64,000 nt of DNA from an uncultured Dehalococcoidia bacterium (GCA_958295515.1 CATQGW010000001.1:777522-841521); one strand, 5' to 3'. Positions 1 through 37,938 are shown, counted from the stretch's first letter. The notes: generated by a model from the letters alone, not told the origin. Numbers and translations: made by a program.

Positions 1-1557
1 GGGGGACTCGCGGCGCTCCTGGGTGATGGAGGCCGCCGCGCCGATTTTGCCCGCGACATGGCGGTTGATCGCGTTGATGTAGGCGCGCGCGCTGGCGACC
101 AGGATGTCCTGGTCGGCCGCGCGGCCGGTGTGGATCACGTCCTCGACGCGGATGCGGATGGTCACGTCGCCCTGGGCGTCGAGGCCCTCGGTGATCGACT
201 TGACGCTGTACTCCTCGAGGGCATCCTCGATGCCGATGATCGCGCGCAGCGTGCGGTAGATCGCGTCGACGGGACCGCTGCCCGTCTCGGAGCCCGAGCA
301 CTCCTCGCCGTCCGGCGAGCGGAGGGTGATCGATGCGCTGGGCGTTTCCGCGGTGCCGGTTGAGATTGAGATCGTGACCAGGTCCCAGGCGTTCTCGATC
401 TGGCCCATGCGGTCGAGCACGATCGCTTCGAGGTCGCGGTCGTCGACCACCGTCTTGGTGTCGGCGAGGGACTGAAAGCGCTCGAAGGCGGTGTTGAAGT
501 CGTCGCTCTCCAGCGCGTAGCCGAGGTCTTCGAGGCGCGAGCGGAAGCCGGCGCGTCCGGAGAGCTTGCTCAGCACGAACTGGCTGCCTTCCGTCCAGCC
601 GACCTCTTTGGGGTCCATGATCTCGTAGGTCTCGCGCAGCTTGACCACGCCGTCCTGGTGGATGCCGGACTGGTGGCGGAAGGCGTTCAGTCCGACGATG
701 GCCTTGTTGGGCTGCACGTGCATGCCGGCGAAGTCCTGCACCATGCGCGAGGCGGGGACGAGGAATTGCGGCTGCACGCCGATTTCCACGCCGAGGTGGT
801 CGGCGCGGGTGCGGATCGACATCACGGTTTCTTCCAGCGAGGCGTTGCCGGCGCGCTCGCCGAGGCCGTTGATGGTGCATTCCACCTGGCGCGCGCCGGC
901 GCGCACCGCGGCCAGGCTGTTGGCCGTGCTCAGCCCGAGGTCGTTGTGGCAGTGTACGGAGACGATCACGTTGTCTGCGCCGGGCACATCCTCGAGGATG
1001 CCGCGGATGAACGCTTCGAACTCGTCGGGAATGGCGTAGCCGACGGTGTCGGGGATGTTGATTGTGGTTGCGCCTGCCTCGATCACTTCGGCCAGCATGC
1101 GGCGCACGAAGTCGACATCGGAGCGCGTGGCGTCCATCGGGCTGAACTCGACGTCGTCGACGTGCTGCTTGGCCTGGGCGACCATCGCGCGGGCCTGTTG
1201 GAGCACCGATTCGCGGTCCTTGCGCAGCTGGTGGGCGATGTGGATGTCGCTGCTGGAGAGGAAGACGTGCAGGCGGGGTGCTTCGGCGTCGCGGATCGCG
1301 GCCCAGCCCTGCTCGACATCGTTGGGGACGGCGCGGCAGAGGGTGGCGATCTGGGTGCCGCGCACTTCGCGGGCGATCTGGTGGACGGCGTCGAAGTCGG
1401 CGGGGCTGGCGGCGGCGAAGCCGGCCTCGATGCAGTCCACGCCCATGCGTTCGAGCAGCTTGGCGATTTGCAGCTTTTCGTCGGCGGAGAAGGAGACGCC
1501 GGCGGCCTGCTCGCCGTCGCGCAGGGTGGTGTCGAAGATTCGGACTCGGTCAGCCAT
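1..1557 (-). CDS. leuA: 2-isopropylmalate synthase / citramalate synthase family (LeuA-like), 3' end truncated by window edge
   Basis: Reverse-complement translation from ATG at 1557 gives MADRVRIFDTTLRDGEQAAGVSFS...HCHNDLGL...; HMGL-like TIM barrel plus C-terminal LeuA dimerisation region; the + strand ORF 658..1749 is its antisense shadow. Confidence 0.85.
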   Translation of the reverse strand, partial: MADRVRIFDTTLRDGEQAAGVSFSADEKLQIAKLLERMGVDCIEAGFAAASPADFDAVHQIAREVRGTQIATLCRAVPNDVEQGWAAIRDAEAPRLHVFLSSSDIHIAHQLRKDRESVLQQARAMVAQAKQHVDDVEFSPMDATRSDVDFVRRMLAEVIEAGATTINIPDTVGYAIPDEFEAFIRGILEDVPGADNVIVSVHCHNDLGLSTANSLAAVRAGARQVECTINGLGERAGNASLEETVMSIRTRADHLGVEIGVQPQFLVPASRMVQDFAGMHVQPNKAIVGLNAFRHQSGIHQDGVVKLRETYEIMDPKEVGWTEGSQFVLSKLSGRAGFRSRLEDLGYALESDDFNTAFERFQSLADTKTVVDDRDLEAIVLDRMGQIENAWDLVTISISTGTAETPSASITLRSPDGEECSGSETGSGPVDAIYRTLRAIIGIEDALEEYSVKSITEGLDAQGDVTIRIRVEDVIHTGRAADQDILVASARAYINAINRHVAGKIGAAASITQERRESP

Positions 1558-1867
1558 GGTGGAGGTGCTCCAGAGTGGTGTGGGGTCTGGCGTGGGGGGA
1601 AGGTGGTCGGCGAGGCGTGGCCGCGTCGGACGGTCCGCTTCGCATCAGGGCAGGAGCAACCCGCGGGCAGCATCGGCCCGCGGCAGCATCCCCCTGGTGG
1701 TCGGTCGCGTCAGCATCATCGTTCGCAGTATACGCACATGCGCGGCTAGGCGGCGCGCCCCGACGAACACACCTGTCTCCCCAGCGGCTCAACCATCGCC
1801 TCGACAACAGGATAGAATCGCCCTGCGGAGCTTCTTGTGCTGGCCAACGAACGTCTTCGGGAGATCA

Positions 1868-2008
1868 CGACAGTTGGACATCCACTTCCGCACGAATCGG
1901 AGAGGGCAGCACGCCATCAAGCTCGGGCATCGGGAGCGCTTGATTGTGACCCTCGCAGACGACGGATCATTGACAATCCAAGAAGTGAGCTTGCGTCATT
2001 ATGAGTAG
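1868..2008 (+). pseudogene. higB-like toxin remnant with internal deletion (about 46 codons left)
   Basis: LDIHFRTNRRG...QHAIKLGHRERLIVTLADDGSLTIQEVSLRHYE aligns to the N- and C-terminal thirds of the intact HigB at 3398..3694 but lacks the middle; abuts higA-like gene. Confidence 0.55.
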
Positions 2009-3119
2009 CGCAAGCTTCCCCCAACTGCTGCGGAATCGCGCGATTCATCCGGGCCGAATCTTGGCGGATGAGCTTGAGGCGCGTTGCCTCTCGTCGGAAG
2101 ACCTGGCTCAACTCGTGCGACCGTCATCCGAACACATTGACCGTGTGCTGCGAGGTCGGGCGCGCATTAGTGGACGTTTCGCCGATGACCTGGAGCAGGC
2201 GCTTGACACCCCGTCGCACGTCTGGCGGCGCTTGCAGGCCGGATACGACGAGACTCTGGCGCGCCTGGCGGCTGAGCCCGACATGCGCCACGACATCGAG
2301 CTGCTGGGCAAGATTCCCTGGCGGGAGTTCGTCAAGCAGGGCTGGATCGCGGATCGCAGTACGGATGTTGAGCGGGTCGGCGAACTACGAACGCTCTACG
2401 CCGCGGACACGTTGAACGGCGCGATGCGCGACCAGCTCGCCGTGGCGTTCCGAATCACTGCGAAAACGAATGTCGATCCCTGGGCGCTCGCCGCATGGCT
2501 GCAACAGGGCGAGTGGCAAGTGATCGAGAGTCGACTGGCTGAGGGCAGCAAGCTCGCCCGCACCTTCAAGCCGTCGCTGTTCGCGGAAAACCTCCGCAGC
2601 ATTCGCGGGCTCATTGGCCGCGAGTCGTTCTGGCCTGAGATGCGCTCACTCTGCGCGTTTGCCGGCGTGCATCTGGAGTACGTACCCCACATTCGCAACT
2701 CCGGAGCGAATGGCCTCACACGCTGGCTTGATGACGACCGCCCGCTGATTCAGCTCAGCCTCTTGCGGAAGCGGGCGGACATCTTCTGGTTCAGCTTTTT
2801 TCACGAAGCGGCCCATGTCCTAAAGAAGGACCGGGACAAACTGTTCATCCATGGGAAAGAGCTCGGTCGCTCCAGCAGCGCTGAGCGGGCGGCCGACGAG
2901 TTTGCTGCGGACCTGTTGATTCCGCCGGAGGACTGGCGGGCGTTTGGCGAGGGCGGGGTCTTCACCAATGAGACGATCATCGAGTTTGCGCGCGACATCG
3001 GCGTCCACCCCGGCATCGTCGTTGGGCGGCTTCAGTATGAGAAGAACGTTCCGCAGAACCGCCACAACGAACTGCGCGTCTCCCTCGACCTCGACGCCTT
3101 CTCCACCGACCCTGTCTGA
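2001..3119 (+). CDS. HigA-type XRE HTH antitoxin fused to ImmA/IrrE (M78) zinc-peptidase-like domain, copy 1
   Basis: N-terminal HPGRILADELEARCLSSEDLAQLV... HigA HTH; C-terminal FHEAAHV HEXXH motif; 372 aa; paralog of 3695..4816. Confidence 0.75.
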   Translation: MSSASFPQLLRNRAIHPGRILADELEARCLSSEDLAQLVRPSSEHIDRVLRGRARISGRFADDLEQALDTPSHVWRRLQAGYDETLARLAAEPDMRHDIELLGKIPWREFVKQGWIADRSTDVERVGELRTLYAADTLNGAMRDQLAVAFRITAKTNVDPWALAAWLQQGEWQVIESRLAEGSKLARTFKPSLFAENLRSIRGLIGRESFWPEMRSLCAFAGVHLEYVPHIRNSGANGLTRWLDDDRPLIQLSLLRKRADIFWFSFFHEAAHVLKKDRDKLFIHGKELGRSSSAERAADEFAADLLIPPEDWRAFGEGGVFTNETIIEFARDIGVHPGIVVGRLQYEKNVPQNRHNELRVSLDLDAFSTDPV

Positions 3120-3131
3120 GCGGCTGGGCCG

Positions 3132-3259
3132 CGCAGGGTGGTGTCGAAGATTCGGACTCGGTCAGCCATGGTGGAGGTGCTCCAGAGTGGTGTGGGGTCT
3201 GGCGTGGGGGGAAGAGGGTCGGCGAGGCGTGGCCGCGTCGGACGGTCCGCCGCCGAGTT
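3132..3259. repeat. ~125 bp near-identical direct repeat copy B (copy A at 1519..1646) containing leuA start codon, first 13 codons and 5' leader
   Basis: gcgcagggtggtgtcgaagattcggactcggtcagccatggtggaggtgctccagagtggtgtggggtctggcgtggggggaag... present twice with about 2 mismatches. Confidence 0.9.
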
Positions 3260-3397
3260 GCCTGGCTGCTGTCGGTCTGTGCTCTCCAATGTGCTCCGTG
3301 ATTCAATGGATCATTGAAGAGATGTCTCCGAGATGCTATCGTGACTGTGGAACGCCCCCGATGTCAGCGCAAGTTCCCGACGTGAGGGAGATCTCCA

Positions 3398-3694
3398 TTG
3401 GACATCGAGTTTCGCAACCGGCGCCTTGAGCGGTTCTACTCGGTGAAGAGCGCCGCGCGAAAGCTGCCCGTTCCAGTTGTGGAGGCGTACGTTGACGCGA
3501 TCGACCTACTCAGGGCAGCGCGTGATCTCAACGCTCTGCGGGCAGTCAAAGGATTGCGTCTCGAACAACTTGAGGGATCGCGGAAGGGGCAGTATTCCAT
3601 CCGGCTCAACCGACAGTGGCGGTTGATTTTGAAGGAAGGCGACAGCAGCACGGTTGTGATCGTCTGGGACGTGAACAACCACTATCAGAAGTGA
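3398..3694 (+). CDS. higB: HigB toxin (plasmid-maintenance killer protein family, PF05015-like)
   Basis: MDIEFRNRRLERFY...LRLEQLEGSRKGQYSIRLNRQWRLILKEGD...VVIVWDVNNHYQK matches Proteus-type HigB; immediately upstream of higA with toxin-first order. Confidence 0.8.
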   Translation: MDIEFRNRRLERFYSVKSAARKLPVPVVEAYVDAIDLLRAARDLNALRAVKGLRLEQLEGSRKGQYSIRLNRQWRLILKEGDSSTVVIVWDVNNHYQK

Positions 3695-4816
3695 GTGAAC
3701 GCCATGACTCATCGACTAGCGGCACGGACGCACGGATACCGCGCGACGCACCCCGGCCGGATCTTGCGCCGCGAGCTTGAGGCGCGCGATATGACGCAAG
3801 CTGCTCTCGCCGCGCGAATGGGCCGCCCGACGCAGGTGATCAACCAGATCATCGGCGAGAAAAAGGCGGTCACCGCCGAGACTGCGCGCGGCCTGGAGCA
3901 TGTCTTGGGCATTCCTCGGCATGTCTGGATGAACCTCCAGTCGAACTACGCGCTCGCGCTTGACCGCCTTGCGGAGGAAGAGCGGCTGGAAGATGAGGAG
4001 CATGCACTGCTGGATGCGCTCGGCGCGGCCACGATCCGCGAAATGATTCGACAGGGCTGGATTGAGAAACGCGAGACGGCAGGGGCGCAGCTCTCGGAGC
4101 TGCTCTCGTTCTTCGGAGTGCAGACGCTCCACGGTCTGGAGCGCACGCCAAGCGCCGCCGCTTTCCGTGTGACGGCCGGCGCGAAGGTTGAACCCTGGCG
4201 GCTCGCGGCTTGGATGCGACGCGGTGAAATCATCGCGGACCAGACGGACCTTCCCGCATCTTTCAACTCCGACCGGTTCCGACGCCTGCTGCCCGACCTT
4301 CGCGGCGAAACGCGAAGCGAGAATCCCTGGCCGCAGCTTCGTGCGCGATGTGCGGCTGTGGGTCTCGCTGTGGTTGTGGTGCCGGCGCTGCCCAAGTCGG
4401 GTGCGAACGGCGTCGCCTATTGGCTTGGGCGCGACCGACCGGTGATCCAGCTCAGCTTGCGGAACAAGCGCGCCGACATCTTCTGGTTCAGCTTCTTCCA
4501 CGAGGCCGCGCATGTCCTGGATGGGTACCGCGCAGACGCGGCGATCAACCTCGAGCGTGTGCCGCGAGACGACCCTATGGAGCGGGCGGCGGATCAGTTT
4601 GCTGCGGACCTCTTGATTCCGCCGGAGGACTGGCGGGTGTTTGGCGAGGGCGGCGTCTTCACCAATGAGACGATCGTTGAGTTTGCGCGCGACATTGGGA
4701 TTCACCCGGGCATCGTCGTCGGGCGGCTTCAGTATGAGAAGAAAGTTCCGCAGAACCGCCATAACGAACTGCGCGTCTCCCTCGACCTCGACGCCTTCTC
4801 CACCGACCCGGTCTGA
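3695..4816 (+). CDS. higA: HigA-type XRE HTH antitoxin fused to ImmA/IrrE (M78) zinc-peptidase-like domain, copy 2
   Basis: HPGRILRRELEARDMTQAALAARMGRPTQVINQIIGEKKAVTAETARGLEHVLGIPRHVWMNLQSNYAL is a HigA HTH signature; FHEAAHV HEXXH motif; start abuts higB stop. Confidence 0.8.
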   Translation: MNAMTHRLAARTHGYRATHPGRILRRELEARDMTQAALAARMGRPTQVINQIIGEKKAVTAETARGLEHVLGIPRHVWMNLQSNYALALDRLAEEERLEDEEHALLDALGAATIREMIRQGWIEKRETAGAQLSELLSFFGVQTLHGLERTPSAAAFRVTAGAKVEPWRLAAWMRRGEIIADQTDLPASFNSDRFRRLLPDLRGETRSENPWPQLRARCAAVGLAVVVVPALPKSGANGVAYWLGRDRPVIQLSLRNKRADIFWFSFFHEAAHVLDGYRADAAINLERVPRDDPMERAADQFAADLLIPPEDWRVFGEGGVFTNETIVEFARDIGIHPGIVVGRLQYEKKVPQNRHNELRVSLDLDAFSTDPV

Positions 4817-4895
4817 GCGGCGACGTTATGCCACTTGGCGTGGCGCGATCCGCTGGCGATCCGCTAGCCTTGCGCTGAGCTCAGGAACTGGGATT

Positions 4896-7800
4896 ATGCA
4901 TAGGCGCACGATCGACATGGCTGTGAGCAGCGCCGCCGGGCGGTTGCTGCTGCGGCAATTGCGGGGGGGGGGGGGTGTAATGTCCCTCCCTGTCGGCGTG
5001 CTTCGGCCGACTGCGCTGCTGATCGCGTTGATCGGCGTGCTTGCGCTGGTCGGCGTGGCGCTGCGCTCGGAGGCCGTGGCGCAGACCAACAACGTGACCG
5101 TGGAGTTCACCCGCGTCGCCGTCGCTGAGCGCCTCGTGACCGATCGGTACAGCCAGACAGGTCCGTTCTCGCAGAACAACTACGGAATCATCCTGCGGCC
5201 CAACGACCTGACCATCAGCGGGGCAGCCCGAGTGCGGATCAGGTTCAGCGAGACGGTCAGCAGCTTCACGCTGGCGAACCTGACGGCAACCAACGCGACG
5301 CTCTCGAACCTGCAGGTGGAGACGGCCAACCGGCGTTGGACGTTCGACGTGACGCCGACGGCGGACGGCGCGGTCAGCATCAGCATCGCGGCCGGCGCAG
5401 TGAACGCCGCCGCCGATGCGACGCGCGGCAATGCGTCGGCGCAATTGAGCATGACCGCGGCGCTCGCCGCGCCCAAAGTGGTCTGGACCGACTTCACCTC
5501 GGCGACAACCCGGCTACAACGCACGGGGCCATATAGCGCCGGCACCCAGATTGACCTGAAGGTGATCTTCAGCGAGAACGTGACGGTTAGCGGCGTCCCG
5601 ACGGTCGGTCTGCACACGCCCAGCAAGACGCCGGGGTCGAAGACGTACAACGCGTCGTATCACAGCGGCAGCGGGACATCGGTGCTGCTCTTCCGCTACA
5701 CCGTGCCGTCCGGGCAGAGCTGGCTAGCCGGCCGCACCACGATCAATTCGTCGGCGATCAGCCTGCCGTCGAGCACCTCGATCGCCGACGCGTCGGGCAA
5801 CGCGGCGACGCTGACCCTGCCGCCGCGGGTGATCAAGGTGGAGCGGCACTTGCCCGCGCCCGCGCCCGGCGAACGCGCGCCGGCCGGGGTGGTCGGCGAC
5901 TCCCACGACTGGGTGTTCACCTTTAGCGAGCCGGTCACGGTGACGCAGGCGCCCGGCGCCGCAGCGCCGTTCTTCCTGGTCGGCTTTACCCTCCGGACCC
6001 CCATCAGCCCCACCCGCACCCGGGGAAACGCGCCCGCGAACTACCTGGAGGGCAGCGGCACGAACCAGCTCACCTTCCGTTACACGGTGCGAGCCGCCGA
6101 CGGTGTCGCTACCGATTCCAGCTTCGTCCCCGACAGCTATCCGTATATCCGGGTCCCCGACGGCTCAGGCGTCCGCAACGCGGCCGGGATTGACGTCCAC
6201 GGGCGAGTTCGCGAGGTCGTCAACCTCATCACCGCGCGCGAAGGGACACGGTTCGGGCGCTCACTCAGACTCTCGTTCTCGTCGATCCACGACGTCATTG
6301 TCCATCTGACCAGCAGCGATCCGGCGCGGGCGACGATCGAACCCAGTTCGTTCACGTTCTTGAGCAGCAACACCGACGCCGACCACTGGAGTACCCGGCA
6401 ACCCTTCATCGTCACGCTGCACCGCGACGATGATGAGGACGACAACGAAGTCACGATCTCCTACCGCTTCGAGAGCGATCTCACGATCATTGACGGCCGC
6501 ACCGGCACGTACTTCAAATTTCTCCTCCAGGAAGCCTTGCCCGGGGTGCCGACGGAGGTCCCCAGCGACACCCGGTCCGAAGGGACGCGGTTCACGATTC
6601 CATTCGCGCTGACGGAGTCGTTCGAGCAGGATGTGATCGTCCACCTGAGCAGCAGCCCTCCGGGGCGGATGACGTTCGAGCCCAGTTCGGTCAGGTTCCT
6701 GGGCTTCAACACCGACCCAGACCACTGGATGATCCCGCAGACCGTGACGGTTACGCTGCTCCCGGACAGCGATGCCGAAGACGACGAAGTCAGGATCCTC
6801 TACCGCTACGAGAGCGTTGACCCGTCCGTTCACGAGACCGCGGGAACGCTTACGACCTACACCGCCGCGGACAGCGCCAACGCGGAGTACGACGCGGCGA
6901 GTCTCCCCACGGACCTGCGGCTGGAGCTGGGCCTGGTGGAGGACTCCGACAATGTGGTGCCGCCCGGGGTGGAGCGGCGGGTTGCGGCGAAGCTGATCTA
7001 CAGCGGCGGCTACGTACCGCTGCAGGTCTCGGCGGACAGCTGGCTTCGGATCAGCGGCAGCGTGGAGTGGGAAGACCGGGATCGTCGGCGGCTGGACCTC
7101 GCGCGGCAGGAGACTCAGTACCTGGGCGACGCGCCGCCCTGCACGAGCCGCACGATTAACAACGTCGAGACCTGGAGCTGCGATGTGACGGTTGACGCGG
7201 CCCGCTTCGTGGTCGCGCCGGGCACGCCGGACGGAGCATTCACGATCTCCGGCAACATAGTCGTCAATGGTCGCGACTACCCCGTCGAGCTGGATGTGAC
7301 GGTGGGCACGGTCGCTGAGGTGGCCTCGGCGGAGCTGGGCTTCGCGACCGATATCGCGCCGGGCGACTCGACCGACACGCCGACCAACAACAACATCGCC
7401 GATGATCGTCCGTACCCGGACGCGATTGCGGTTGGGGAGAGCACGACGCTGCAGCTGGCGGTGCTCAACGAGCGGGGCACGGCCTCGCATACCGGCGAAA
7501 TCAGCTCGCTCGTTTTCACCACCACGGGCGGGACATTGAGTCTCGCCAACCCGGTGGGCGACTGCGTGGGCGGCGGCGGCAGCAGCTGCCAGGTGCCGGT
7601 CAACCTGCTGACCACCGACAACGCGGACGACATCCGGGTGACGCTCACGCATCCCGGGCTGGAGCAGCTGGGCGCGGGTGTGGTGCGGGCGCTCGTGGTG
7701 TCCAAAGACGGCGACACAGTCAACGCCGATCCGCTCACGGTGACCTTCCTCGGCCCCGCCGAGTCGATCGCGATCGCCGAGCCCGCCACGGCGGTGCTGA

Positions 7801-8762
7801 ACTACGACCCGCCCGCCCCAGACGGCGGCGGCGCAGATGTCCGCGATCTGCTGAAGCTGTCGGTTATCGGGTCCGATGCCAGCGGCCGTACGGTGCCGCT
7901 GACGGCGCCGTTCGGCAGAGTGATTGTCAGGGATCCCGACGGGCGGCTGGTCTGGAACGGCTCGAGCTACGCGGTGCAGAACGGGATGCGGATCGACTGG
8001 CCGCTGCGGGAGCGGGATGATGACGGGGCGCTCGTGGATGGCGACTCCAGCAAGAGCGGGGTTCAGCCGAAATATATCCGCGATGCGGACGGCAATCTGC
8101 AGGTGCAAGTTGATATTGAGGTGGATGAGGCGGCGCAGCTGACGAAGGGGGAGTACACGATCGAGCTGCGCGCCATCGGGGAGACGGCTGAGCAGACCTT
8201 CTCGGTCGGCGGCGAGCCGGCGGAGGTCGCGCTGGGCGAACCGACAGGCTCGACGGAGGACGGCGGGCGGCTGACCGTGACCGCGACGCTGACTGATGCG
8301 GACGGCAACCTGGTGGGGGAGGGGACGCCGGTGCGTTGGGAAGAGGGCAGCGTGGGGTCGCATGTGGTGTTGGTGCAGATCTCCGCTGAGGCGAGGACGA
8401 GCGGCGGCAGCGCGTCGGCGACGTATCTGGTGGTGGGGCGGGGAACGGCCTGGGTGCGGGCGAGTTCGGGGGAGGCGACGGACACGCGGGTGATGTTCAA
8501 CCTGGGCGCGCCGCCTGCGCCAGCTGCGCTGGCCAACCCCGCGGAGTCGCTCAGCAGTCATAGGCCGGGCGCGTTTGCGTCCTGGCTCGGCAGGGGGGCG
8601 ACGAGCGCTTCCGCGCTGCTGGCGGGGCTCGACGGGATTGATTCGATCTCCGTGTGGCGCAATGGCGCTTGGCTGCGCTATGAGGTGGTGGACGGCGCGG
8701 CGGCGGGCGGTGGGGTGGACTTTGAGGTGCGGCGGGGCGAGATCCTGCGTTTGGGCGGCTGA
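4896..8762 (+). CDS. giant secreted/surface repeat protein, paralog 1 (alternative start ATG 4979 immediately after G13 tract)
   Basis: From ATG 4896 the frame runs through a G13 tract (encoding RGGGGV) into MSLPVGVLRPTALLIALIGVLALVGVALRSEAVAQ signal peptide; internal ~100 aa duplicated domain (..HLTSSDPARATIEPSS.../..HLSSSPPGRMTFEPSS...); C-terminal region shared with 11032..14442 and 17972..21658. Confidence 0.7.
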   Translation: MHRRTIDMAVSSAAGRLLLRQLRGGGGVMSLPVGVLRPTALLIALIGVLALVGVALRSEAVAQTNNVTVEFTRVAVAERLVTDRYSQTGPFSQNNYGIILRPNDLTISGAARVRIRFSETVSSFTLANLTATNATLSNLQVETANRRWTFDVTPTADGAVSISIAAGAVNAAADATRGNASAQLSMTAALAAPKVVWTDFTSATTRLQRTGPYSAGTQIDLKVIFSENVTVSGVPTVGLHTPSKTPGSKTYNASYHSGSGTSVLLFRYTVPSGQSWLAGRTTINSSAISLPSSTSIADASGNAATLTLPPRVIKVERHLPAPAPGERAPAGVVGDSHDWVFTFSEPVTVTQAPGAAAPFFLVGFTLRTPISPTRTRGNAPANYLEGSGTNQLTFRYTVRAADGVATDSSFVPDSYPYIRVPDGSGVRNAAGIDVHGRVREVVNLITAREGTRFGRSLRLSFSSIHDVIVHLTSSDPARATIEPSSFTFLSSNTDADHWSTRQPFIVTLHRDDDEDDNEVTISYRFESDLTIIDGRTGTYFKFLLQEALPGVPTEVPSDTRSEGTRFTIPFALTESFEQDVIVHLSSSPPGRMTFEPSSVRFLGFNTDPDHWMIPQTVTVTLLPDSDAEDDEVRILYRYESVDPSVHETAGTLTTYTAADSANAEYDAASLPTDLRLELGLVEDSDNVVPPGVERRVAAKLIYSGGYVPLQVSADSWLRISGSVEWEDRDRRRLDLARQETQYLGDAPPCTSRTINNVETWSCDVTVDAARFVVAPGTPDGAFTISGNIVVNGRDYPVELDVTVGTVAEVASAELGFATDIAPGDSTDTPTNNNIADDRPYPDAIAVGESTTLQLAVLNERGTASHTGEISSLVFTTTGGTLSLANPVGDCVGGGGSSCQVPVNLLTTDNADDIRVTLTHPGLEQLGAGVVRALVVSKDGDTVNADPLTVTFLGPAESIAIAEPATAVLNYDPPAPDGGGADVRDLLKLSVIGSDASGRTVPLTAPFGRVIVRDPDGRLVWNGSSYAVQNGMRIDWPLRERDDDGALVDGDSSKSGVQPKYIRDADGNLQVQVDIEVDEAAQLTKGEYTIELRAIGETAEQTFSVGGEPAEVALGEPTGSTEDGGRLTVTATLTDADGNLVGEGTPVRWEEGSVGSHVVLVQISAEARTSGGSASATYLVVGRGTAWVRASSGEATDTRVMFNLGAPPAPAALANPAESLSSHRPGAFASWLGRGATSASALLAGLDGIDSISVWRNGAWLRYEVVDGAAAGGGVDFEVRRGEILRLGG
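4963..4975 (+). repeat. G13 homopolymeric tract at translation start of giant protein paralog 1
   Basis: 13 consecutive G counted directly (gcaattgc-G13-tgtaATG). Confidence 0.9.
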
Positions 8763-14541: not shown

Positions 14542-16272
14542 ATGGCCAAGTTTGATGTTCTGATTCGCGGCGGCACGGTTGTGGATGGCACTCGCGTGCC
14601 GAAATTCAAGGCCGATGTCGGGATTGCGGATGGGCGGATCGCCCAGGTGGGCGGCAAGATGGATCCGGCCGATGCGGAGCAGTTGCTTGAGGCGGAGGGG
14701 CTGATCGTCGCGCCCGGCTTCGTGGACCTGCACACTCACTACGACGCGCAGATTCAGTGGGATCCGTACTGCACGATCTCCGGCTGGCATGGGGTCACGT
14801 CGGTGGTGCTGGGCAACTGCGGCTTCGGCTTCGCGCCGGTGCGCGAGGAGGAGCGCGACCGGGCGATGCTGACGATGTCGCGCACCGAAGCGATTCCCTT
14901 CGACTCGATGCAGGCGGGGATGATCTGGGACTGGGTTTCGTTCCCGGAGTGGCTGGACACGCTGGATCGCATCCCCAAGGGGGTGAACTGCCTGTCGTAC
15001 ATGCCGCTCGCGCCGCTGATGACGTGGGTGATGGGTCTGGAGGCGGCGAAGAGCCGTCGCGCCAACGACGGCGAGATTGCGGAGATGCAGCGGCTGCTCG
15101 GCGAGGCGATGGACGCAGGGGCGTGCGGCTGGTCGACGCAGCGGCTGGGCGAGAACTCGGTGCAGGCGGACTACGACGGCACGCCGATGGTGACCGACAT
15201 CATGAGCGATAACGAGTGTCTGGCGCTGGCGGAGGTGCTCGCCGAGCGCGACGAGGGCTTCATCCAGATCACGCAGTTCACCGGCGATCTCGACGCGGAC
15301 CTGGAGTTTCAGTCGCGCCTGGCGGCGGCTGCGCGGCGTCCGATTCTGCACAATCTGATCGCGGTGAGCCGCGAGAACGCCGATGTGCATCGCAACCGCA
15401 TGCGGTGGCTTGAGGAGTGCAACGCGCGGGGGGAGCCGATCTTCGGCCAGGCGGCGACGATTCGCGCGGCGTTCACCTTCACGCTCGAGGACTGGAATCT
15501 CTACGACTCGTCGCCGGCCTGGAACTACGCCACGACCGGCACGCGCGAGGAGAAGCTGGAGAAGTTCGCCGACGCCGGGGTGCGCGCCAACATCAGGGCG
15601 GAGATCGACGAGGCGATCAAGAAACTCGGTCAGACCCAGGCGCTGGGCGGGCCGATTGAGGAGCTGCTGATCCAGGATCTGGCGCACAAGCCCGAGTTGG
15701 AGGAATACGTGGGGATGACCGTGGGGCAGGTCGCCGAAGCGCGCGGCGTTCACGCCGTCGATGCGATGCTCGATCTGGCGCTCGAGACCGACCTTGCGGC
15801 CGAGTTCCTGACGCCGATGCGCGAGCAGAACGACGAGTGGACGGCGGAGATGATGTCCTCGCCCTATGTGGTGCCGGGCGTCTCCGACGGGGGCGCGCAC
15901 ACGAAGTTCCTGACGGCCGGCTCCTACCCGACCGATTTCCTGATCTGGCTGGTGCGGGATACGCAGCGGCTGACGCTGGAGGAGGCGCACTACCGGCTCT
16001 CCTACCTGCCGGCCCGTGCGGCGGGTTTCCGGGACCGCGGCGCGATTATCGAGGGCGCGCCGGCCGATGTGGTCGTCTACGACCTCGACGGGCTGAAGAT
16101 CACGCCGGAGTGGACGGGCGAGGTTGTCCACGACTTCCCGGCGGGGGAGTGGCGGCGGGTGCAGCGTCCGGACGGCTATCGCTGGATTCTGGTCAATGGG
16201 GAGGTGACGTTCGAGGACGGCAAGGAGACGGGCGCGACGCCGGGCAAGCTGCTCCGCCACGGCCGCGGCTAG
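14542..16272 (+). CDS. D-aminoacylase family amidohydrolase, copy 2
   Basis: MAKFDVLIRGGTVVDGTRVPKFKADVGIADGRIAQVGG... about 85% identical to 8870..10600; AAGGAG SD. Confidence 0.8.
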   Translation: MAKFDVLIRGGTVVDGTRVPKFKADVGIADGRIAQVGGKMDPADAEQLLEAEGLIVAPGFVDLHTHYDAQIQWDPYCTISGWHGVTSVVLGNCGFGFAPVREEERDRAMLTMSRTEAIPFDSMQAGMIWDWVSFPEWLDTLDRIPKGVNCLSYMPLAPLMTWVMGLEAAKSRRANDGEIAEMQRLLGEAMDAGACGWSTQRLGENSVQADYDGTPMVTDIMSDNECLALAEVLAERDEGFIQITQFTGDLDADLEFQSRLAAAARRPILHNLIAVSRENADVHRNRMRWLEECNARGEPIFGQAATIRAAFTFTLEDWNLYDSSPAWNYATTGTREEKLEKFADAGVRANIRAEIDEAIKKLGQTQALGGPIEELLIQDLAHKPELEEYVGMTVGQVAEARGVHAVDAMLDLALETDLAAEFLTPMREQNDEWTAEMMSSPYVVPGVSDGGAHTKFLTAGSYPTDFLIWLVRDTQRLTLEEAHYRLSYLPARAAGFRDRGAIIEGAPADVVVYDLDGLKITPEWTGEVVHDFPAGEWRRVQRPDGYRWILVNGEVTFEDGKETGATPGKLLRHGRG

Positions 16273-16343
16273 GGATCGCTCCACCCGCTCCGGCTCTTGC
16301 ACGAATCCCCGCCGCAAGGCGGGGGTTCGGGTACCGTACAGAA

Positions 16344-17168
16344 ATGGATCCGCCCAGCAAGAGCGCGCTCAATCGCCTCGGTAGTCGGCTGAGAAAATCT
16401 GATCCGCCCTCGGCGGAAGATCGGGAGGTTTACCGCGAGTACGCGGCCACGTTTCTTCCTCCGCTCAATGAGGCGATCGAGGCGGTCGTCGAGAACTCCG
16501 GGTCTGTGAACTTGGCCGAGCTCGGGGCGCGAATCAAGAAATTCGAGTCAGTCGTCGCCAAGCTCCGTCGTCAGCCAACGAAGTTAGCCAGCATTGAGGA
16601 CATCGGTGGATGTCGTCTGGTTGTGCTCACGCTGGGAGACATTGAAGATGTTCATCAGTCCTTGGATCGGACATTGAACATCGTGCGGTTCCGCGATTAC
16701 CGCGAGGATGCCCACGATGGCTATCGGGCAGTCCATCTGGTTGCGCAAATGACGCCAAGACACCGCATCGAGATCCAGATTCGGACCGAACTTCAGAACG
16801 AGTGGGCCAACCTCTCCGAGCACTTGTTCCAAAGGGTTGACCCGGAGATCAAATACGGTGGCGGGCCACGAGGCGTTCGTCAGAGGCTTGATGCGCTGTC
16901 GGACGAGGGGTGGGAGCTGGATCGTCTGAGACAACGTCTGGCTGATGGGGACCTAGACTACCGCACGCTACGCCAGGCCGCGTTGTCCTCAGCGAGATTT
17001 GGCGTGGAGTGGAACGCTGAGATGATGGAGAGAGTGAGACACGTTGAGCAAGAGATGGGGCGGATCTTTGAACAGCTAAACATCTCGCTCGGCGATTTTC
17101 GCGCTAGAATAGATGCGCTGAGGCACGATGGGAGTTTGACCGATGAAGCACTTCGTCCTCCTCTATGA
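16344..17168 (+). CDS. RelA/SpoT-domain (alarmone synthetase-like) protein, small stand-alone; toxSAS-like candidate
   Basis: DIGGCRLVVLTLGD...DGYRAVHLVAQ...IEIQIRTELQNEWA matches RelA/SpoT synthetase core (D-x-G-x-R, GYxSxH, EIQIRT..W); 275 aa; 3' end overlaps next gene by 26 nt. Confidence 0.7.
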   Translation: MDPPSKSALNRLGSRLRKSDPPSAEDREVYREYAATFLPPLNEAIEAVVENSGSVNLAELGARIKKFESVVAKLRRQPTKLASIEDIGGCRLVVLTLGDIEDVHQSLDRTLNIVRFRDYREDAHDGYRAVHLVAQMTPRHRIEIQIRTELQNEWANLSEHLFQRVDPEIKYGGGPRGVRQRLDALSDEGWELDRLRQRLADGDLDYRTLRQAALSSARFGVEWNAEMMERVRHVEQEMGRIFEQLNISLGDFRARIDALRHDGSLTDEALRPPL

Positions 17169-17956: not shown

Positions 17957-17969
17957 GGGGGGGGGGGGG
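17957..17969 (+). repeat. G13 homopolymeric tract at translation start of giant protein paralog 2
   Basis: 13 consecutive G (gcaattgc-G13-taATG); upstream conserved leader ORF from ATG 17890 is out of frame with the main ORF at this tract length. Confidence 0.9.
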
Positions 17970-17971
17970 TA

Positions 17972-20900
17972 ATGCGCCTCTGGCGGCGCGTGTTTCGGCC
18001 GACTGCGCTGCTGATTGCGTTGATCGGCGTGCTCGCGCTCGGCGGCGTGGCGCTGCGCTCGGAGGTTGCCGCGCAGACCAACGACGTGACCGTGGAGTTC
18101 ACCCGCGTCGCCCACATGAAGCGAAACCAGATCCATGGCTTCCTCCAAGGCACCACCACGCGTCCGAACGACCTGGCCATCAGCGGGGCAGTCCGAGTGC
18201 ACATCAGGTTCAGCGAGGAGGTCAGCGGCTTCACGCTGGCGAGCCTGACGGCGAGCAACGCGACGCTCTCGAACTTGCACATGCGGCAGACCAACTGGCG
18301 TTGGACGTTCAGCGTGACGCCGACGGCGGACGGCGCGGTCAGCATCAGCATCGCGGCGGGCGCGGTGCAGGCCGCCGCCGACGCGACGCGCGGGAATGCG
18401 TCGGGGCAATTGAGCATGACCGCCGCGCTCGGCGCGCCCAAAGTGATCTGGGCCGACCTCACCACCTCGGGGTCAACCTGGCAACGCCATAGGCAGCGGT
18501 ACAGCGCCGGCACCCGGATTGACCTGACGGTGATCTTCAGCGAGTACGTGACGGTCAGCGGCGTCCCGACGGTCGGTCTGCACACGACCAGCAAGCCGGC
18601 GCCCAAGGCGTACGATGTGCCGTTTGCCGCAAGCGACGGGTCGGTGCTGCTCTTCAGCTACACCGTGCCGGCCGGGCAGAACTGGTCCCGCGGCTGGACC
18701 ACGATCACTTCGTCGGCGATCAGCCTGCCGTCGAGCGCCTCGATCACCGACGCGGATGGCAACGCGGCGACGCTGACCCTGCCGCCGCGGGTGATCGAGG
18801 CCGAGCGGCTCTTGGCCATGCCCGCGCCCGGCGAACGCGGGCCGCAAGGCGTGGTCGGCGACTCCCACGACTGGACGATCACCTTTAGCGAGCCGGTCAC
18901 GGTGACTCAGGCGCCCGGCGCCGAAGCGCCGTGGATCGCGATCAGAGCCACCCTCCAGGACGGCAACTCGGGAACGGTGCGCGCGAACTACCTGGAAGGC
19001 AGCGGCACGGATACGCTCACCTTCCGTTACACGGTGCGCGCCGCCGACAACGTCGCTACCGATGCCAGCTATGGCTTCGACAGCGCACGGTATGTCCGCG
19101 TCCCCGACGGCGCAGGCGTCCGCAACGCGGCGGGGCTTGATGTCAGCGGGCGATTTGCCACTGCCGCCAACGTCGCCATCCAGCGCGAAGGGACGCAGTC
19201 CGTGCGCGGAGCCAGACTCTCGTTCTCGTCGGTCCACGACGTCACCTTCCACCTGACCAGCAGCGATCCGGACCGGCTGACGATCGAACCCAGTTCGCTC
19301 ACGTTCTTGAGCAGAAACACCGACGCCGACCACTGGAGGACCTGGCAGGCCGTCACCTACACGGCGCACAGTGACGATGATGAGGAAACCAACGAAGTCA
19401 CGGTCTCCTACCGCTTCGAGAGCGATTACACGGCCATCGACGGCCTCACCGGCAGGTACCTCCTGTTTCGCATCCAGGAAGCCGCAGTCGGGGCGCCGAC
19501 GGAGGTCCCGAGCGGCACCCGGTCCGAAGGGACGCGGTTCACGATTCCATTCGCGCTGACGGAGCCGTTGGAGCAGGATGTGATCGTCCACCTGAGCAGC
19601 AGCGATCCGGCGCGGATGACGTTCGAGCCCAGCGCGGTCAGGTTCCTGGGTACCAACACCGACCCCGACCACTGGATGATCCCGCAGACCGTGACCGTTA
19701 CGCTGCTCCCCGACAGCGATGGCGAAGACGACGAAGTCATGGTTCTCTACCGCTACGAGAGCGTTGACCCGCCCGTTCACGGCACCGAGGGAACGCTCGC
19801 GACATACACCGCCGCGGACAGCGCCAACGCGGACTACGACGCGGCGAGTCTCCCGGCGGACCTGCGGCTGGAGCTGGGGCTGGTCGAGGATTCCGACCAG
19901 ATTGTTCCGCCCGGGGGCGAGCGGAAGGTTGCGGTGAAGCTGATCTACAGCGGCGGCTACGTACCGCTGCAGGTCTCGGCGGACAGCTGGCTACGGATCA
20001 GCGGCAGCGTGGAGTGGGAGGACCGAGATCGGCGGCGGCTCGGTCTCGCGCGGCAGGAGACTCAGTACCTGGGCAGCGCGCCGCCCTGCCAGAGCAGCAC
20101 GATCGACACAGTCGAGACCTGGAGCTGCGATGTGCTGATCGACGCCGCGCGCTTCGTGGTGCCGCCGGGCACGCCCGACGGAGCATTCACGATCTCCGGC
20201 AACATAGTCGTCAATGGTCGCGACTACCCCGGCGAGCTGGAGGTGACGGTGGGCACGGTCGATGAGGTCGCCTCGGCCGAGCTGGACTTTGCGACCGATA
20301 CCGCTGATGATCGTCCGTATCCCGACGCGATTGCGGTTGGTGAGAGCACGACGCTGCAGTTGGCGGTGCTGAACGAGCACGACAAGGCCTCGCATACCGG
20401 CGAAATCAGCTCGCTCGTGTTCACCACCACGGGCGGGGCATTGAGTCTCGCCCACCCGGTGGGCGAGTGCGTGGGCGGGGGCGGCAGCAGCTGCCAGGTG
20501 CCGGTGGATCTGCTGACGACCGACAACACGGACCAGGTGCGGGTGACGCTCACGCATCCCGGGCTGGAGCAGCTGGGCGCGGGTATCGTGCGTGCGCTCG
20601 TGGTGTCCAAAGACGGCGACACCATCAACGCCGATCCGCTCACGGTGACCTTCCTCGGCCCCGCCGAGTCGATCATGATTGGCGAACCTGCCACGGCAGT
20701 ACTTAACTACGACCCGCCGGAGCGGGACGGCGGCGGCGAAGATGTCCGCGATCTGCTGAAGCTGTCGGTCATCGGGTCCGATGACAGCGGCCGCACGGTG
20801 CCGCTGACGGCGCCGTTCGGCAGAGTGATCGTTAGAGCCCCGGATGGCATGGTTGTCTGGAGCGGCTCGAGCTATGAGGTGCAGAACGGGATGCGGATCG

Positions 20901-21658
20901 ACTGGCCGCTGCGCGAGCGGGACGATGACGGGGCGCTCGTGGACGGCGACTCCAGCAAGAGCGGGATTCAGCCGAAATATATCCGCGATGCGGACGGCAA
21001 CCTCCAGGTGCAAATCGATATTGAGGCGGACGAGGCATCGCAGCTGACGAAGGGTGACTACACGATCGAGCTGCGCGCTATCGGGGAGACGGCCGAGCAG
21101 ACCTTCTCGGTCGGCGGCGCGCCGGCGGAGATTGCGCTGAGCGAACCGGGAGGCTCAACGGAAGACGGCGGGCGGCTGACCGTGACGGCGAGATTGACCG
21201 ACAGGGACGGCAACCCGGTGGGGGACGGGACGCCGGTTCGCTGGCAAGAGGGCAGCGTGGGGTCGCATGTGGTGTTGGTGCAGATCTCTGCTGAGTCGAG
21301 GACCAGCGGCGGCAGCGCGTCGGCGACGTATCTGGTGGTTGGGCGGGGCACCGCTTGGGTGCGGGCGAGCTCAGGCGAGGCGGCGGACACGCGGGTGATG
21401 TTCAACCTCGGAGTGCCGCCGCCGCCGCCTAACCCTGCGGAGCAGCTCAGCAGCCGTCGGCCCGGCGCGTTCGCGGCCTGGCTCGGCAGGGGCGCGACGA
21501 GCGCGTCGGAGCTGTTGGCGGGGCTTGACGGGATCGACTCGATCACCGTTTGGCGCGACGGGGGCTGGCTGCGCTATGAGGTGGTGGACGGTGCAGCGGC
21601 ATCCGGTGGGGTGGACTTTGAGGTGCGGCGGGGCGAGATCGTGCGTCTGGGCGGCTGA
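17972..21658 (+). CDS. giant secreted/surface repeat protein, paralog 2
   Basis: MRLWRRVFRPTALLIALIGVLALGGVALRSEVAAQ signal peptide; colinear with paralog 1 throughout including duplicated ~100 aa domain and C-terminal ...VDFEVRRGEIVRLGG. Confidence 0.75.
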   Translation: MRLWRRVFRPTALLIALIGVLALGGVALRSEVAAQTNDVTVEFTRVAHMKRNQIHGFLQGTTTRPNDLAISGAVRVHIRFSEEVSGFTLASLTASNATLSNLHMRQTNWRWTFSVTPTADGAVSISIAAGAVQAAADATRGNASGQLSMTAALGAPKVIWADLTTSGSTWQRHRQRYSAGTRIDLTVIFSEYVTVSGVPTVGLHTTSKPAPKAYDVPFAASDGSVLLFSYTVPAGQNWSRGWTTITSSAISLPSSASITDADGNAATLTLPPRVIEAERLLAMPAPGERGPQGVVGDSHDWTITFSEPVTVTQAPGAEAPWIAIRATLQDGNSGTVRANYLEGSGTDTLTFRYTVRAADNVATDASYGFDSARYVRVPDGAGVRNAAGLDVSGRFATAANVAIQREGTQSVRGARLSFSSVHDVTFHLTSSDPDRLTIEPSSLTFLSRNTDADHWRTWQAVTYTAHSDDDEETNEVTVSYRFESDYTAIDGLTGRYLLFRIQEAAVGAPTEVPSGTRSEGTRFTIPFALTEPLEQDVIVHLSSSDPARMTFEPSAVRFLGTNTDPDHWMIPQTVTVTLLPDSDGEDDEVMVLYRYESVDPPVHGTEGTLATYTAADSANADYDAASLPADLRLELGLVEDSDQIVPPGGERKVAVKLIYSGGYVPLQVSADSWLRISGSVEWEDRDRRRLGLARQETQYLGSAPPCQSSTIDTVETWSCDVLIDAARFVVPPGTPDGAFTISGNIVVNGRDYPGELEVTVGTVDEVASAELDFATDTADDRPYPDAIAVGESTTLQLAVLNEHDKASHTGEISSLVFTTTGGALSLAHPVGECVGGGGSSCQVPVDLLTTDNTDQVRVTLTHPGLEQLGAGIVRALVVSKDGDTINADPLTVTFLGPAESIMIGEPATAVLNYDPPERDGGGEDVRDLLKLSVIGSDDSGRTVPLTAPFGRVIVRAPDGMVVWSGSSYEVQNGMRIDWPLRERDDDGALVDGDSSKSGIQPKYIRDADGNLQVQIDIEADEASQLTKGDYTIELRAIGETAEQTFSVGGAPAEIALSEPGGSTEDGGRLTVTARLTDRDGNPVGDGTPVRWQEGSVGSHVVLVQISAESRTSGGSASATYLVVGRGTAWVRASSGEAADTRVMFNLGVPPPPPNPAEQLSSRRPGAFAAWLGRGATSASELLAGLDGIDSITVWRDGGWLRYEVVDGAAASGGVDFEVRRGEIVRLGG

Positions 21659-25968: not shown

Positions 25969-25983
25969 GGGGGGGGGGGGGGG
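25969..25983 (-). repeat. C15 (plus-strand G15) homopolymeric tract between signal peptide and mature domain of lipoprotein gene
   Basis: 15 consecutive G counted on plus strand. Confidence 0.9.
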
Positions 25984-36872: not shown

Positions 36873-37938
36873 TCAGCCGGCTCGCTGCACCGTGCCGCCG
36901 CCCAGCACCTGCTCGCCGTCGTAGAAGACGGCGGCCTGGCCGGGCGCGACCGCCCGCGCCGGCTGGTCGAGATGCAGCACCGCCGTGTCCGCGTCTGCGA
37001 GTTCCACACGGCAGGCGGTGGGCGCGGCGCGGTAGCGCAGCTGCGCGGCGACCCGCTCGCGCGGCTCGCACAGCCAGCGGCAGTCGGTCAGCTCCAGCCG
37101 ACGCGCCAGCAGCGCATCTTCTCCGCCCAGCGTCACGGTCTGCGTCTCCGCGTCGACGGCGGTGACATAGCGGCGTTCGCCGCCGCCGCCCGCGCCCAGC
37201 CCGCGGCGCTGCCCGATCGTGAAGTGCTGCACGCCCTGATGCCGCCCGACGACCGCGCCGGTGGCGTCCACCATCGGCCCCGGCCGCGCTTCGAGCCGCT
37301 GGTCCACGAACGCGCGGTAATCGCCGCCGGGCACGAAGCAGATGTCCGCGCTGTCGGGCTTGTCGGCCACTGCCAGCCCGTGGCGCTCGGCAATCCGCCG
37401 CACCTCGCGCTTCTGCAGGCCGCCGACGGGAAAGCGCGTCATCGCCAGCGCGGCGTCGCTCAGGGTGTAGAGGAAGTAGGACTGATCCTTGTCGGGGTCC
37501 AGACCGCGCAGCAGCGCCGGCCGGCCGCCGCGCGGCGCAATGCGCGCGTAGTGGCCGGTCGCCAGCCAGTCCGCGCCCAGCGCCCGCGCCTGCTCGAGGA
37601 AGCGGTCGAACTTGATGTAGGTGTTGCAGTTTAGGCAGGGGTTGGGGGTGCGCCCGCGCCCGTACTCGGCGACGAACGGCTCGACGACCTGCTCGAGGAA
37701 CGGGCGCTCCATGTTCAGCGTGTAGTGCGGGATGCCCAGCCGGTGGGCGGCGCGGCGGGCGTCCTCGACATCCTCAATCCCGCAGCACTGGGTGCGGCCG
37801 GACAGGCCCGGCGGGCGCGCCTCGGTCCAGAGCCGCATCGTGATCCCGATCACCTCGAAGCCCTGCTCGACCAGCAGTGCGGCCGCGACCGAGGAGTCGA
37901 CGCCGCCGCTCATGCCGACCACGACGCGCTCAGGCATG
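36873..37938 (-). CDS. mnmA: tRNA-specific 2-thiouridylase MnmA
   Basis: [24 protein letters not shown]-loop; ..CLNCNT..; start taken at ATG 37938 rather than the longer ORF. Confidence 0.85.

Follow-up and report, generated by a model that had tools for sequence, protein, structure and literature searches.

Two tandem modules, each pairing a HigB toxin gene or its remnant with a HigA antitoxin gene fused to a metallopeptidase domain, were identified beside leuA in a 64,000-nt stretch of DNA from an uncultured Dehalococcoidia bacterium (GCA_958295515.1, CATQGW010000001.1:777522-841521), referred to here as the window. The locus is probably a chromosomal type II toxin-antitoxin system of a known family, present as two tandem copies of different allelic type. 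The architecture of HigB followed by HigA fused to an M78 (ImmA/IrrE-like) peptidase is already catalogued, and the locus adds a member to a widespread two-gene family. New here are the stacking of alleles at the leuA site, the duplication of the leuA 5' end, the shuffling of cassettes and the toxin-less variants that are under selection. The novelty implied by the initial annotation of this stretch was too high, as the fusion and its pairing with RelE/HigB had been described in 2009 (PMC2701414) and the PD-lambda-2 defence system had been characterised in 2022 (PMC9519451). In the 2009 study Makarova, Wolf and Koonin listed operons in which COG2856-Xre fusions accompany RelE and PIN toxins, and they suggested that such systems are regulated by a protease (PMC2701414). 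The features of the locus are listed in Table 1. Modules 1 and 2 of the window are abbreviated w1 and w2, and L-numbers denote loci of related genomes.

Module 2 consists of an intact higB and a directly adjoining higA-peptidase gene. The initial annotation had described a PF05015-type higB abutting a gene for a 373-aa protein, and both open reading frames (ORFs) were confirmed. HigB matched PF05015 (HigB-like_toxin) with an E value of 2.9e-15 and 56.9 bits (cutoff 27). Among solved structures, GraT (6f8s_B) and the HigB of P. vulgaris are closest to it. With an iterated jackhmmer profile built from this HigB, HigB-like ORFs were recovered from the fetched loci, among them the L001 ORF holding the toxin remnant described below. 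A Shine-Dalgarno-like site (GAGGGAG) is present 5' of the TTG start of higB. The higB stop codon (3692-3694) abuts the higA start, giving the toxin-first order and the coupling arrangement found in 76 of 83 relatives. An alternative higA start at ATG 3704 is equally plausible, and relatives align from that methionine. Hidden Markov model (HMM) searches with copy 2 of the fusion gave 54.1 bits for TIGR02607 (cutoff 47.7) and 28.4 bits for Peptidase_M78 (cutoff 22). Its AlphaFold2 model had a predicted local distance difference test (pLDDT) score of 87.9, and the fold matched HigA, CapP and PprI. Between the window and L001 copy 2 has 25 synonymous and 11 nonsynonymous differences (omega 0.14, P ~4e-8 against neutrality). 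The putative module-2 promoter was read by eye in an alignment with L002. It was not picked by the consensus scan for sigma-70 promoters and terminators, which found nothing above shuffles.

In module 1 the higA-peptidase gene is complete and most of higB is missing. The remnant equals the intact 98-aa HigB of L085 and L086 minus exactly 162 nt (codons 9-62), the alignment being in frame on both sides. The deletion junction lies near 1895/1896 at a CGA microhomology, and 55% of the gene has been lost. In its first eight residues the remnant is identical to the intact toxin, and what is left of the C-terminal part can be aligned over its whole length. An internally deleted higB had thus been recognised correctly in the initial annotation, which gave its length as about 46 codons instead of 44 and its loss as the central third. 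L085 and L086 came from a second homologue search, and each has the intact toxin directly upstream of a copy-1 relative in the same leuA-adjacent position. The intact type-1 toxin of L085 scores below the PF05015 cutoff and its sole match is ParE_like (E=0.056). The same remnant was found in L001, an independent and non-identical 2.8-Mb contig (98%/95% identical to the window), where it differs at 1 of 127 nt. The region 1734-1873 upstream differs from L001 at 2 of 140 nt. Copy 1 of the fusion scored 23.5 bits for Peptidase_M78 (cutoff 22). It is 72-78% identical to its L085 relative over residues 14-300, and L085 has its own C-terminal tail. Copy 1 is of type 1 up to about residue 300 and then carries a lineage-type tail. 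Between the window and L001 it has 23 synonymous and 10 nonsynonymous differences (omega 0.13, P ~4e-8 to 5e-8 against neutrality). Copy 1 is under purifying selection although its toxin has lost 54 codons. It is probably a selected orphan repressor or antitoxin able to neutralise the type-1 HigB toxins of related strains such as L085 and L086. Alternatively, it could have a regulatory role independent of a toxin.

Table 1. Positions of the two modules, the repeats and neighbouring features in the window.
Feature	Position	Strand	Remarks
leuA (2-isopropylmalate synthase)	1..1557	-	Conserved left flank; runs past the window start; translation begins MADRVRIFDTTLRDGEQ
Repeat D2, original	1518..1638		First 13 codons of leuA and 81 nt upstream of its ATG
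Module-1 upstream/promoter region	1734..1873	+	-10-like TAGAAT at 1813-1818, conserved in L085/L086
higB remnant, allelic type 1	1874..2008	+	TTG start, 44 codons and stop; overlaps higA1 by 8 nt
HigA-HTH/M78 fusion, copy 1	2001..3119	+	372 aa; HEAAH at 2802-2816
Repeat D1, copy 1	2883..3124	+	3' end of higA-peptidase and 5 nt; 93% identical to 4580-4821
Repeat D2'	3130..3250		Duplicated leuA 5' fragment marking the module junction; 2/121 mismatches to D2
Module-2 upstream/promoter region	3251..3397	+	Candidate -35 TTGAAG 3314-3319 and -10 TATCGT 3337-3342, 17-nt spacer
HigB toxin gene, intact, allelic type a	3398..3694	+	98 aa; TTG start
HigA-HTH/M78 fusion, copy 2	3695..4816	+	373 aa; HEAAH at 4499-4513; Glu ligand E296
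Repeat D1, copy 2	4580..4821	+	Last ~240 nt of higA-peptidase
Giant Big_12 surface-protein genes	4896/4980-8762 and 17972-21658		

The two fusion proteins have the same domain order, a HigA helix-turn-helix (HTH) domain followed by an M78 domain. The HMM searches bore out the initial proposal of a HigA HTH joined to an ImmA/IrrE domain with an HEXXH motif, Peptidase_M78 being above its cutoff in both copies. With TIGR02607 the proposal held for copy 2; copy 1 fell below the cutoff (35.4 against 47.7 bits). The N-domain has the HigA-type five-helix XRE fold. It superimposes on solved HigA structures, with sequence identities of about 30-37%. The C-domain has the M78 fold, its model matching CapP, PprI and PrpR first. 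PprI is an IrrE orthologue. The PADLOC capP model also matched the HigA-peptidases (E ~1e-7 to 3e-8), and 9vzy_A, which we take to be VapB52, showed marginal sequence similarity to them (E=1.6). In alignments of 56-76 relatives H269, E270, H273 and E296 were invariant (76/76), and all four are present in both window copies. The copies are 52% identical overall. As the initial annotation had noted for the C-terminal 75 aa, the ends are nearly identical and the middles diverge (93% over residues 301-373, 32-39% over 14-235). A weak tblastn match of the HEXXH region at 36942-37121 was spurious, that stretch being mnmA on the opposite strand.

The family is large. A homologue search gave at least 1899 matches at E<=1e-5, almost all of 355-375 aa and, where named, called HigA-family antitoxins. 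Neither the two window proteins nor P0001 gave a match in exact-sequence look-ups. When one genome per species was scanned, more than 516 loci were confirmed in many bacterial phyla and in one archaeal metagenome-assembled genome (MAG), and the best genome matches in that scan were Dehalococcoidia MAGs. Genomic context was taken from P0021, P0002, P0026 and P0024, and neighbourhoods were counted in 80 fetched loci together with L001 and L002. A HigB ORF lies directly upstream of the HigA-peptidase ORF in 76 of 83 cases, usually with an overlap of 1-11 nt. The pair occurs in Chloroflexota, Cyanobacteria, Planctomycetota, Campylobacterota, Firmicutes, Actinomycetota and others. No conserved downstream gene was found across the 80 related loci. 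Members of the HigA-peptidase family are also carried by 71 plasmids and a few phages. In PGAP annotation the toxin gene is called 'killer suppression protein', and its partner either 'ImmA/IrrE family metallo-endopeptidase' or 'HigA family addiction module antitoxin', the latter being the name used in an annotated plasmid example. In Achromobacter phage CF418P1 (L084) a 161-aa ORF (3605-4090) lies directly 3' of the phage-borne HigA-peptidase. This ORF could be a third component like PD-lambda-2C, and its product had no PADLOC match.

The unit leuA 5' end, promoter, higB and higA occurs twice in the window, the two copies having the same orientation and being joined by 5 nt (3125-3129). The repeats at its borders, including a 121-nt duplication of the leuA 5' end between the modules that the initial annotation had missed, show that the tandem arose by segmental duplication or by additive recombination that copied the leuA 5' end. 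Either the unit was duplicated and an allele then replaced, or a circularised fragment from a sibling strain was inserted by a Campbell-type event via the conserved 3' end; D1 and D2 fit both routes. The duplicated fragment D2' was considered as an antisense promoter into higA1 and rejected, since the conserved leuA -10 box and leader hairpin are missing from it.

Comparison with related strains separated the alleles. L002 has a LeuA 100% identical to that of the window and a single module, in which the C-half of HigA-peptidase is 97% identical to copy 2, HigB 39% and the HigA N-half 54-63%. In L003 (LeuA 93% identical) HigB and the N-half are of the copy-2 type (71% and 73-87%, respectively) and the C-half is different (59-80%). 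L004 combines an L002-type N-cassette with an L003-type C-half. HigB together with HigA residues 14-185 falls into type a (w2, L003), type b (L002, L004) and type 1 (w1, L085), and the C-terminal part into type x (w2, L002, the w1 tail) and type y (L003, L004). All combinations of N-cassette and C-half occur, indicating that higB and approximately the first 185 codons of higA have repeatedly recombined as one unit. The peptidase half tracks the host lineage, and higB and the HigA N-half shuffle as a cassette. The mosaic alleles thus map a functional boundary: HigB goes with HigA residues ~1-185, which predicts where toxin recognition lies. Type b (L002) and intact type 1 (L085, L086) occur as single modules between leuA and the amidohydrolase region, with a Big_12 gene intervening in L002. 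Synonymous divergence between the window and L002 is 0.63 in the module and 0.038 in the adjacent leuA. The tandem is thus a stack of two different allelic types at a single locus, and the interiors of the modules are not recent duplicates. The initial description of an upstream higA-peptidase was right in substance; 'paralogous', the term used for it, is imprecise for alleles that occur singly at this locus in other genomes.

The leuA gene adjoins a HigB/HigA-peptidase module in L001-L005, L013 and L085-L087. This synteny is kept where LeuA is 84-100% identical, and the HigA-peptidases there are just 40-72% identical. The leuA-adjacent module is a long-resident, fast-evolving locus. It is flanked by leuA/leuC on one side and by genes for giant Big_12 surface proteins, amidohydrolases and an FG-GAP protein on the other, which places it in the chromosome beside housekeeping genes and in neither a defence island nor a mobile element. 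A tentative reading of these patterns is that the leuA site is a long-lived polymorphic addiction or immunity locus of a family-level Dehalococcoidia clade. The toxin and the toxin-binding antitoxin N-half would form an exchangeable specificity cassette, which homologous recombination would repeatedly place on a peptidase (sensor) half that is fixed in the lineage. Strains would stack cassettes, then shed toxins and keep the toxin-less HigA-peptidases as selected immunity genes against the toxins of sister strains. If this were true, the toxin-less variants would show HigB to be the lethal partner in the HigA-peptidase family, contrary to PD-lambda-2, the sole experimental report.

As a toxin-antitoxin system the module would act as follows. 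HigB would arrest growth as an mRNA nuclease that depends on the ribosome. The HigA domain (residues ~14-95 and a long helix to ~109) would bind and neutralise HigB and repress the operon. By analogy with CapP, PprI and VapB52 the M78 domain may be a latent, signal-activated protease, the likeliest signal being single-stranded DNA (ssDNA) from DNA damage or phage replication. The protease would cleave the antitoxin in the stretch that joins its two domains, perhaps close to (F/Y)157-R158. Such a cut would free HigB, with growth arrest or abortive infection as the outcome. The (F/Y)157-R158 motif between the domains is present in 72/76 and 71/76 sequences and sits in a lower-confidence segment of the model. 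It recalls the FR motif of VapB52, for which a role as the cleavage site has been proposed, and is a lead, a candidate cleavage site only.

A proteolytically regulated switch with an orphan antitoxin as a guard, as suggested in the initial annotation, agrees by analogy with published work on VapB52 of M. tuberculosis (Singh et al. 2026, PMC13273310), and also with the purifying selection on the toxin-less copy. The XRE-M78 fusion antitoxin VapB52 is paired with a PIN toxin and, in the presence of ssDNA, removes its own toxin-binding N-domain by cleavage; the nearest structures to its middle domain are CapP 7T5T, IrrE 3DTI and PrpR 6D2S (PMC13273310). It shares with the window proteins an N-terminal XRE-type domain, a following M78/IrrE-like domain and an aromatic-Arg motif in between. 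In VapBC52, however, the toxin is the PIN-domain protein VapC. VapB52 also carries a cysteine-switch loop and, at its C-terminus, an additional domain that blocks the active site of the toxin. In the HigA-peptidase family the peptidase region is the last part of the protein, and the switch cysteine is missing. CapP is activated by ssDNA (bioRxiv 10.64898/2026.05.16.725639). The CapP/CapH, IrrE(PprI)/DdrO and ImmA/ImmR systems share the M78 fold and metal site and an XRE-family HTH partner. They consist of a separate protease and repressor that control other genes, whereas here one polypeptide is coupled to a toxin, with the HTH followed by the peptidase, no GAF domain and no cysteine switch. 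Canonical HigBA systems (P. vulgaris Rts1, P. aeruginosa, P. putida GraTA) share the toxin-first order, a PF05015 HigB and the HigA N-domain. Canonical HigA is about 100 aa, and the window HigA has about 275 further residues forming a helical linker and the metallopeptidase domain. The locus is of the same kind as the Xre-COG2856 class, in which a Zn peptidase and an Xre HTH stand in an operon with a RelE-family toxin (PMC2701414). Within that class the window proteins belong to a specific HigA/HigB subfamily of ~365-375 aa.

Several observations weigh against the toxin-antitoxin reading. Neither upstream region was found to contain an inverted repeat or operator palindrome. Any cysteine between HEXXH and E296 was found in only 4 of 76 sequences and in neither window copy; with no cysteine-switch residue in the family, protease gating must differ from that of CapP and VapB52. 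The remaining points come from PD-lambda-2, a three-gene E. coli system that gives abortive-infection defence against lambda-vir and encodes a HigB-like protein, a fusion of HigA to a peptidase and a third component (Vassallo et al. 2022, PMC9519451). There, to the surprise of its authors, the HigA-peptidase was toxic on overexpression, the HigB-like protein rescued and the third gene was needed for defence (PMC9519451). That third gene, PD-lambda-2C (P4-antitoxin-like), is absent from the present locus and not conserved in the 80 related loci. The window HigB had no PADLOC match to PD-Lambda-2_A at E<=1.

It is rather unlikely that the HigA-peptidase is a self-contained transcriptional switch for stress or DNA damage, a fused analogue of ImmR/ImmA or DdrO/IrrE that would regulate its own operon and possibly neighbouring genes. 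HigB would then be a dispensable passenger, and the toxin-less copies would be accounted for. A LexA-like logic for Xre-COG2856 fusions was proposed by Makarova et al. 2009 (PMC2701414), the toxin-less copies are under selection, and the module has stayed beside leuA in genomes with 84-100% identical LeuA. The intergenic region and remnant can be read in the same direction. Stretch 1558-2000, comprising the leuA leader, the module-1 promoter and the remnant, differs from L001 at 4 of 443 nt (0.9%). Synonymous divergence from L001 is 0.049 in leuA and 0.09 in higA1, so that the stretch is several-fold more conserved than the synonymous sites of the flanking genes (4.9-9%). Possible reasons for this slow divergence are regulatory constraint, a need to retain a short ORF that couples translation to higA1, or the local history of recombination. 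A passenger would nevertheless not be expected directly upstream in 76 of 83 members from many phyla. In the mosaic alleles, moreover, HigB and the N-half of HigA are inherited together, and the two facts argue for a co-adapted toxin-antitoxin pair. In a mirror-tree comparison HigB identity correlated best with the HTH region (rho 0.41 vs 0.20-0.32 for other regions), a weak correlation that is not leaned on.

PD-lambda-2 suggests a reversed polarity, in which the HigA-peptidase would be a toxic protease acting on cellular targets and the HigB-like protein its inhibitor or sensor. For the present locus this is improbable. The two systems are alike in architecture: an upstream HigB-like gene is followed by a HigA HTH fused to a C-terminal ImmA/IrrE peptidase, and both window proteins matched PD-Lambda-2_B in PADLOC (copy 2, E=4.3e-36; copy 1, E=2.7e-28) over most of the 402-position model (67-378 and 127-378, respectively). 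PD-lambda-2A is likewise described as HigB-like (PMC9519451), though the HigB proteins of the window, L002 and L085 all miss the A model; L002 and L085 HigB had no PADLOC match at E<=0.01. The locus is chromosomal and beside housekeeping genes, unlike the setting of PD-lambda-2 in a mobile element or defence island. The toxicity in PD-lambda-2 came from overexpression, however, and in at least four independent loci HigB has been lost or truncated and a full-length HigA-peptidase kept.

L001 has lost the equivalent of window 3162-3633 (L001 9160-9221), which removes the module-2 promoter region and all of higB except the last ~20 codons and leaves the higA-peptidase ORF intact. With the remnant of module 1 it has no intact HigB at the locus, and yet its two toxin-less HigA-peptidase genes in tandem both have an omega of ~0.13-0.14. 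In L015 and L057, which are unrelated genomes with independent truncations, only the last 25-27 HigB codons are left upstream of a full-length HigA-peptidase. L058 and L081 have no trace of HigB upstream of a full-length HigA-peptidase. Repeated loss of the toxin with retention of the HigA-peptidase argues that HigB is the toxic partner. On the evidence of these gene losses HigB, rather than the peptidase fusion, would be the dangerous component. For native expression levels at least, the toxin-less loci are hard to square with a peptidase that is tolerated only when HigB is present. These natural deletions bear on the question of which PD-lambda-2 component is toxic. The intact module, the orphan of another type and the toxin-free sister strain also form a matched set, suited to asking whether an M78 domain without the cysteine switch still brings about self-destruction of the antitoxin in response to a signal.

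That module 1 is a functionless, decaying relic heading for pseudogenisation is very improbable. Its toxin is destroyed and its HTH scores well under the TIGR02607 cutoff, but the weak score is shared by the whole type-1 clade and is no sign of decay. The ORF is full-length, all nearly invariant HTH positions of the family alignment are kept, as is every other invariant or nearly invariant position of the family, HEXXH and the Glu ligand included, and omega is 0.13. The remnant and promoter region together differ from L001 at just 3 of 267 nt. A metagenome assembly artefact joining two strain alleles is scarcely credible for the tandem: the window resembles MAG-derived sequence and the alleles occur singly in co-occurring genomes (L002 and L001 are from one sample), but the independent L001 has the same order, junction and remnant, with a further private deletion, and the tandem is on that account no artefact.

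The leuA orthologues of L001 and L002 matched HMGL-like/LeuA_dimer in Pfam. At the 5' leader of leuA (window 1558-1733, minus strand) a TATACT -10-like box and, after it, a leader of ~170 nt are common to eight Dehalococcoidia loci. A hairpin in this leader, CCGCGGGC-N7-GCCCGCGG, is invariant in the eight loci and a second conserved stem is also present. The invariance of the hairpin means that it has no covariation support. An Rfam scan of window 1-6000 gave sub-threshold noise only, and the leader had no family match. It may be an undescribed leader or attenuator.

The first gene 3' of module 2 encodes a 1288-aa Big_12 protein. It is about 92% identical between the window and L002, and the leuA-side flank (window 1-1733) is 99% identical. 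The gene (window 4896-8762) is absent between the toxin-antitoxin module and the amidohydrolase gene in L003, L085 and L086, which suggests that it was inserted in the lineage to which the window, L001 and L002 belong. Poly-G tracts are present at window 4963-4975 (G13), 17957-17969 (G13) and 25969-25983 (G15). The first two lie in homologous leaders of ~75 nt (..CGGCAATTGC-Gn-T(G)TAATG..) at the starts of giant Big_12 genes. At the first site L001 and L002 have G6, compared to G13 in the window. The tracts could reflect slipped-strand phase variation of giant adhesin-like genes or long-read homopolymer error. An ORF at window 15837-17168 (plus strand) has a RelA_SpoT nucleotidyltransferase domain (E=4.6e-17). 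It overlaps the end of an amidohydrolase ORF and its true start is probably later. Its product may be a small alarmone synthetase.

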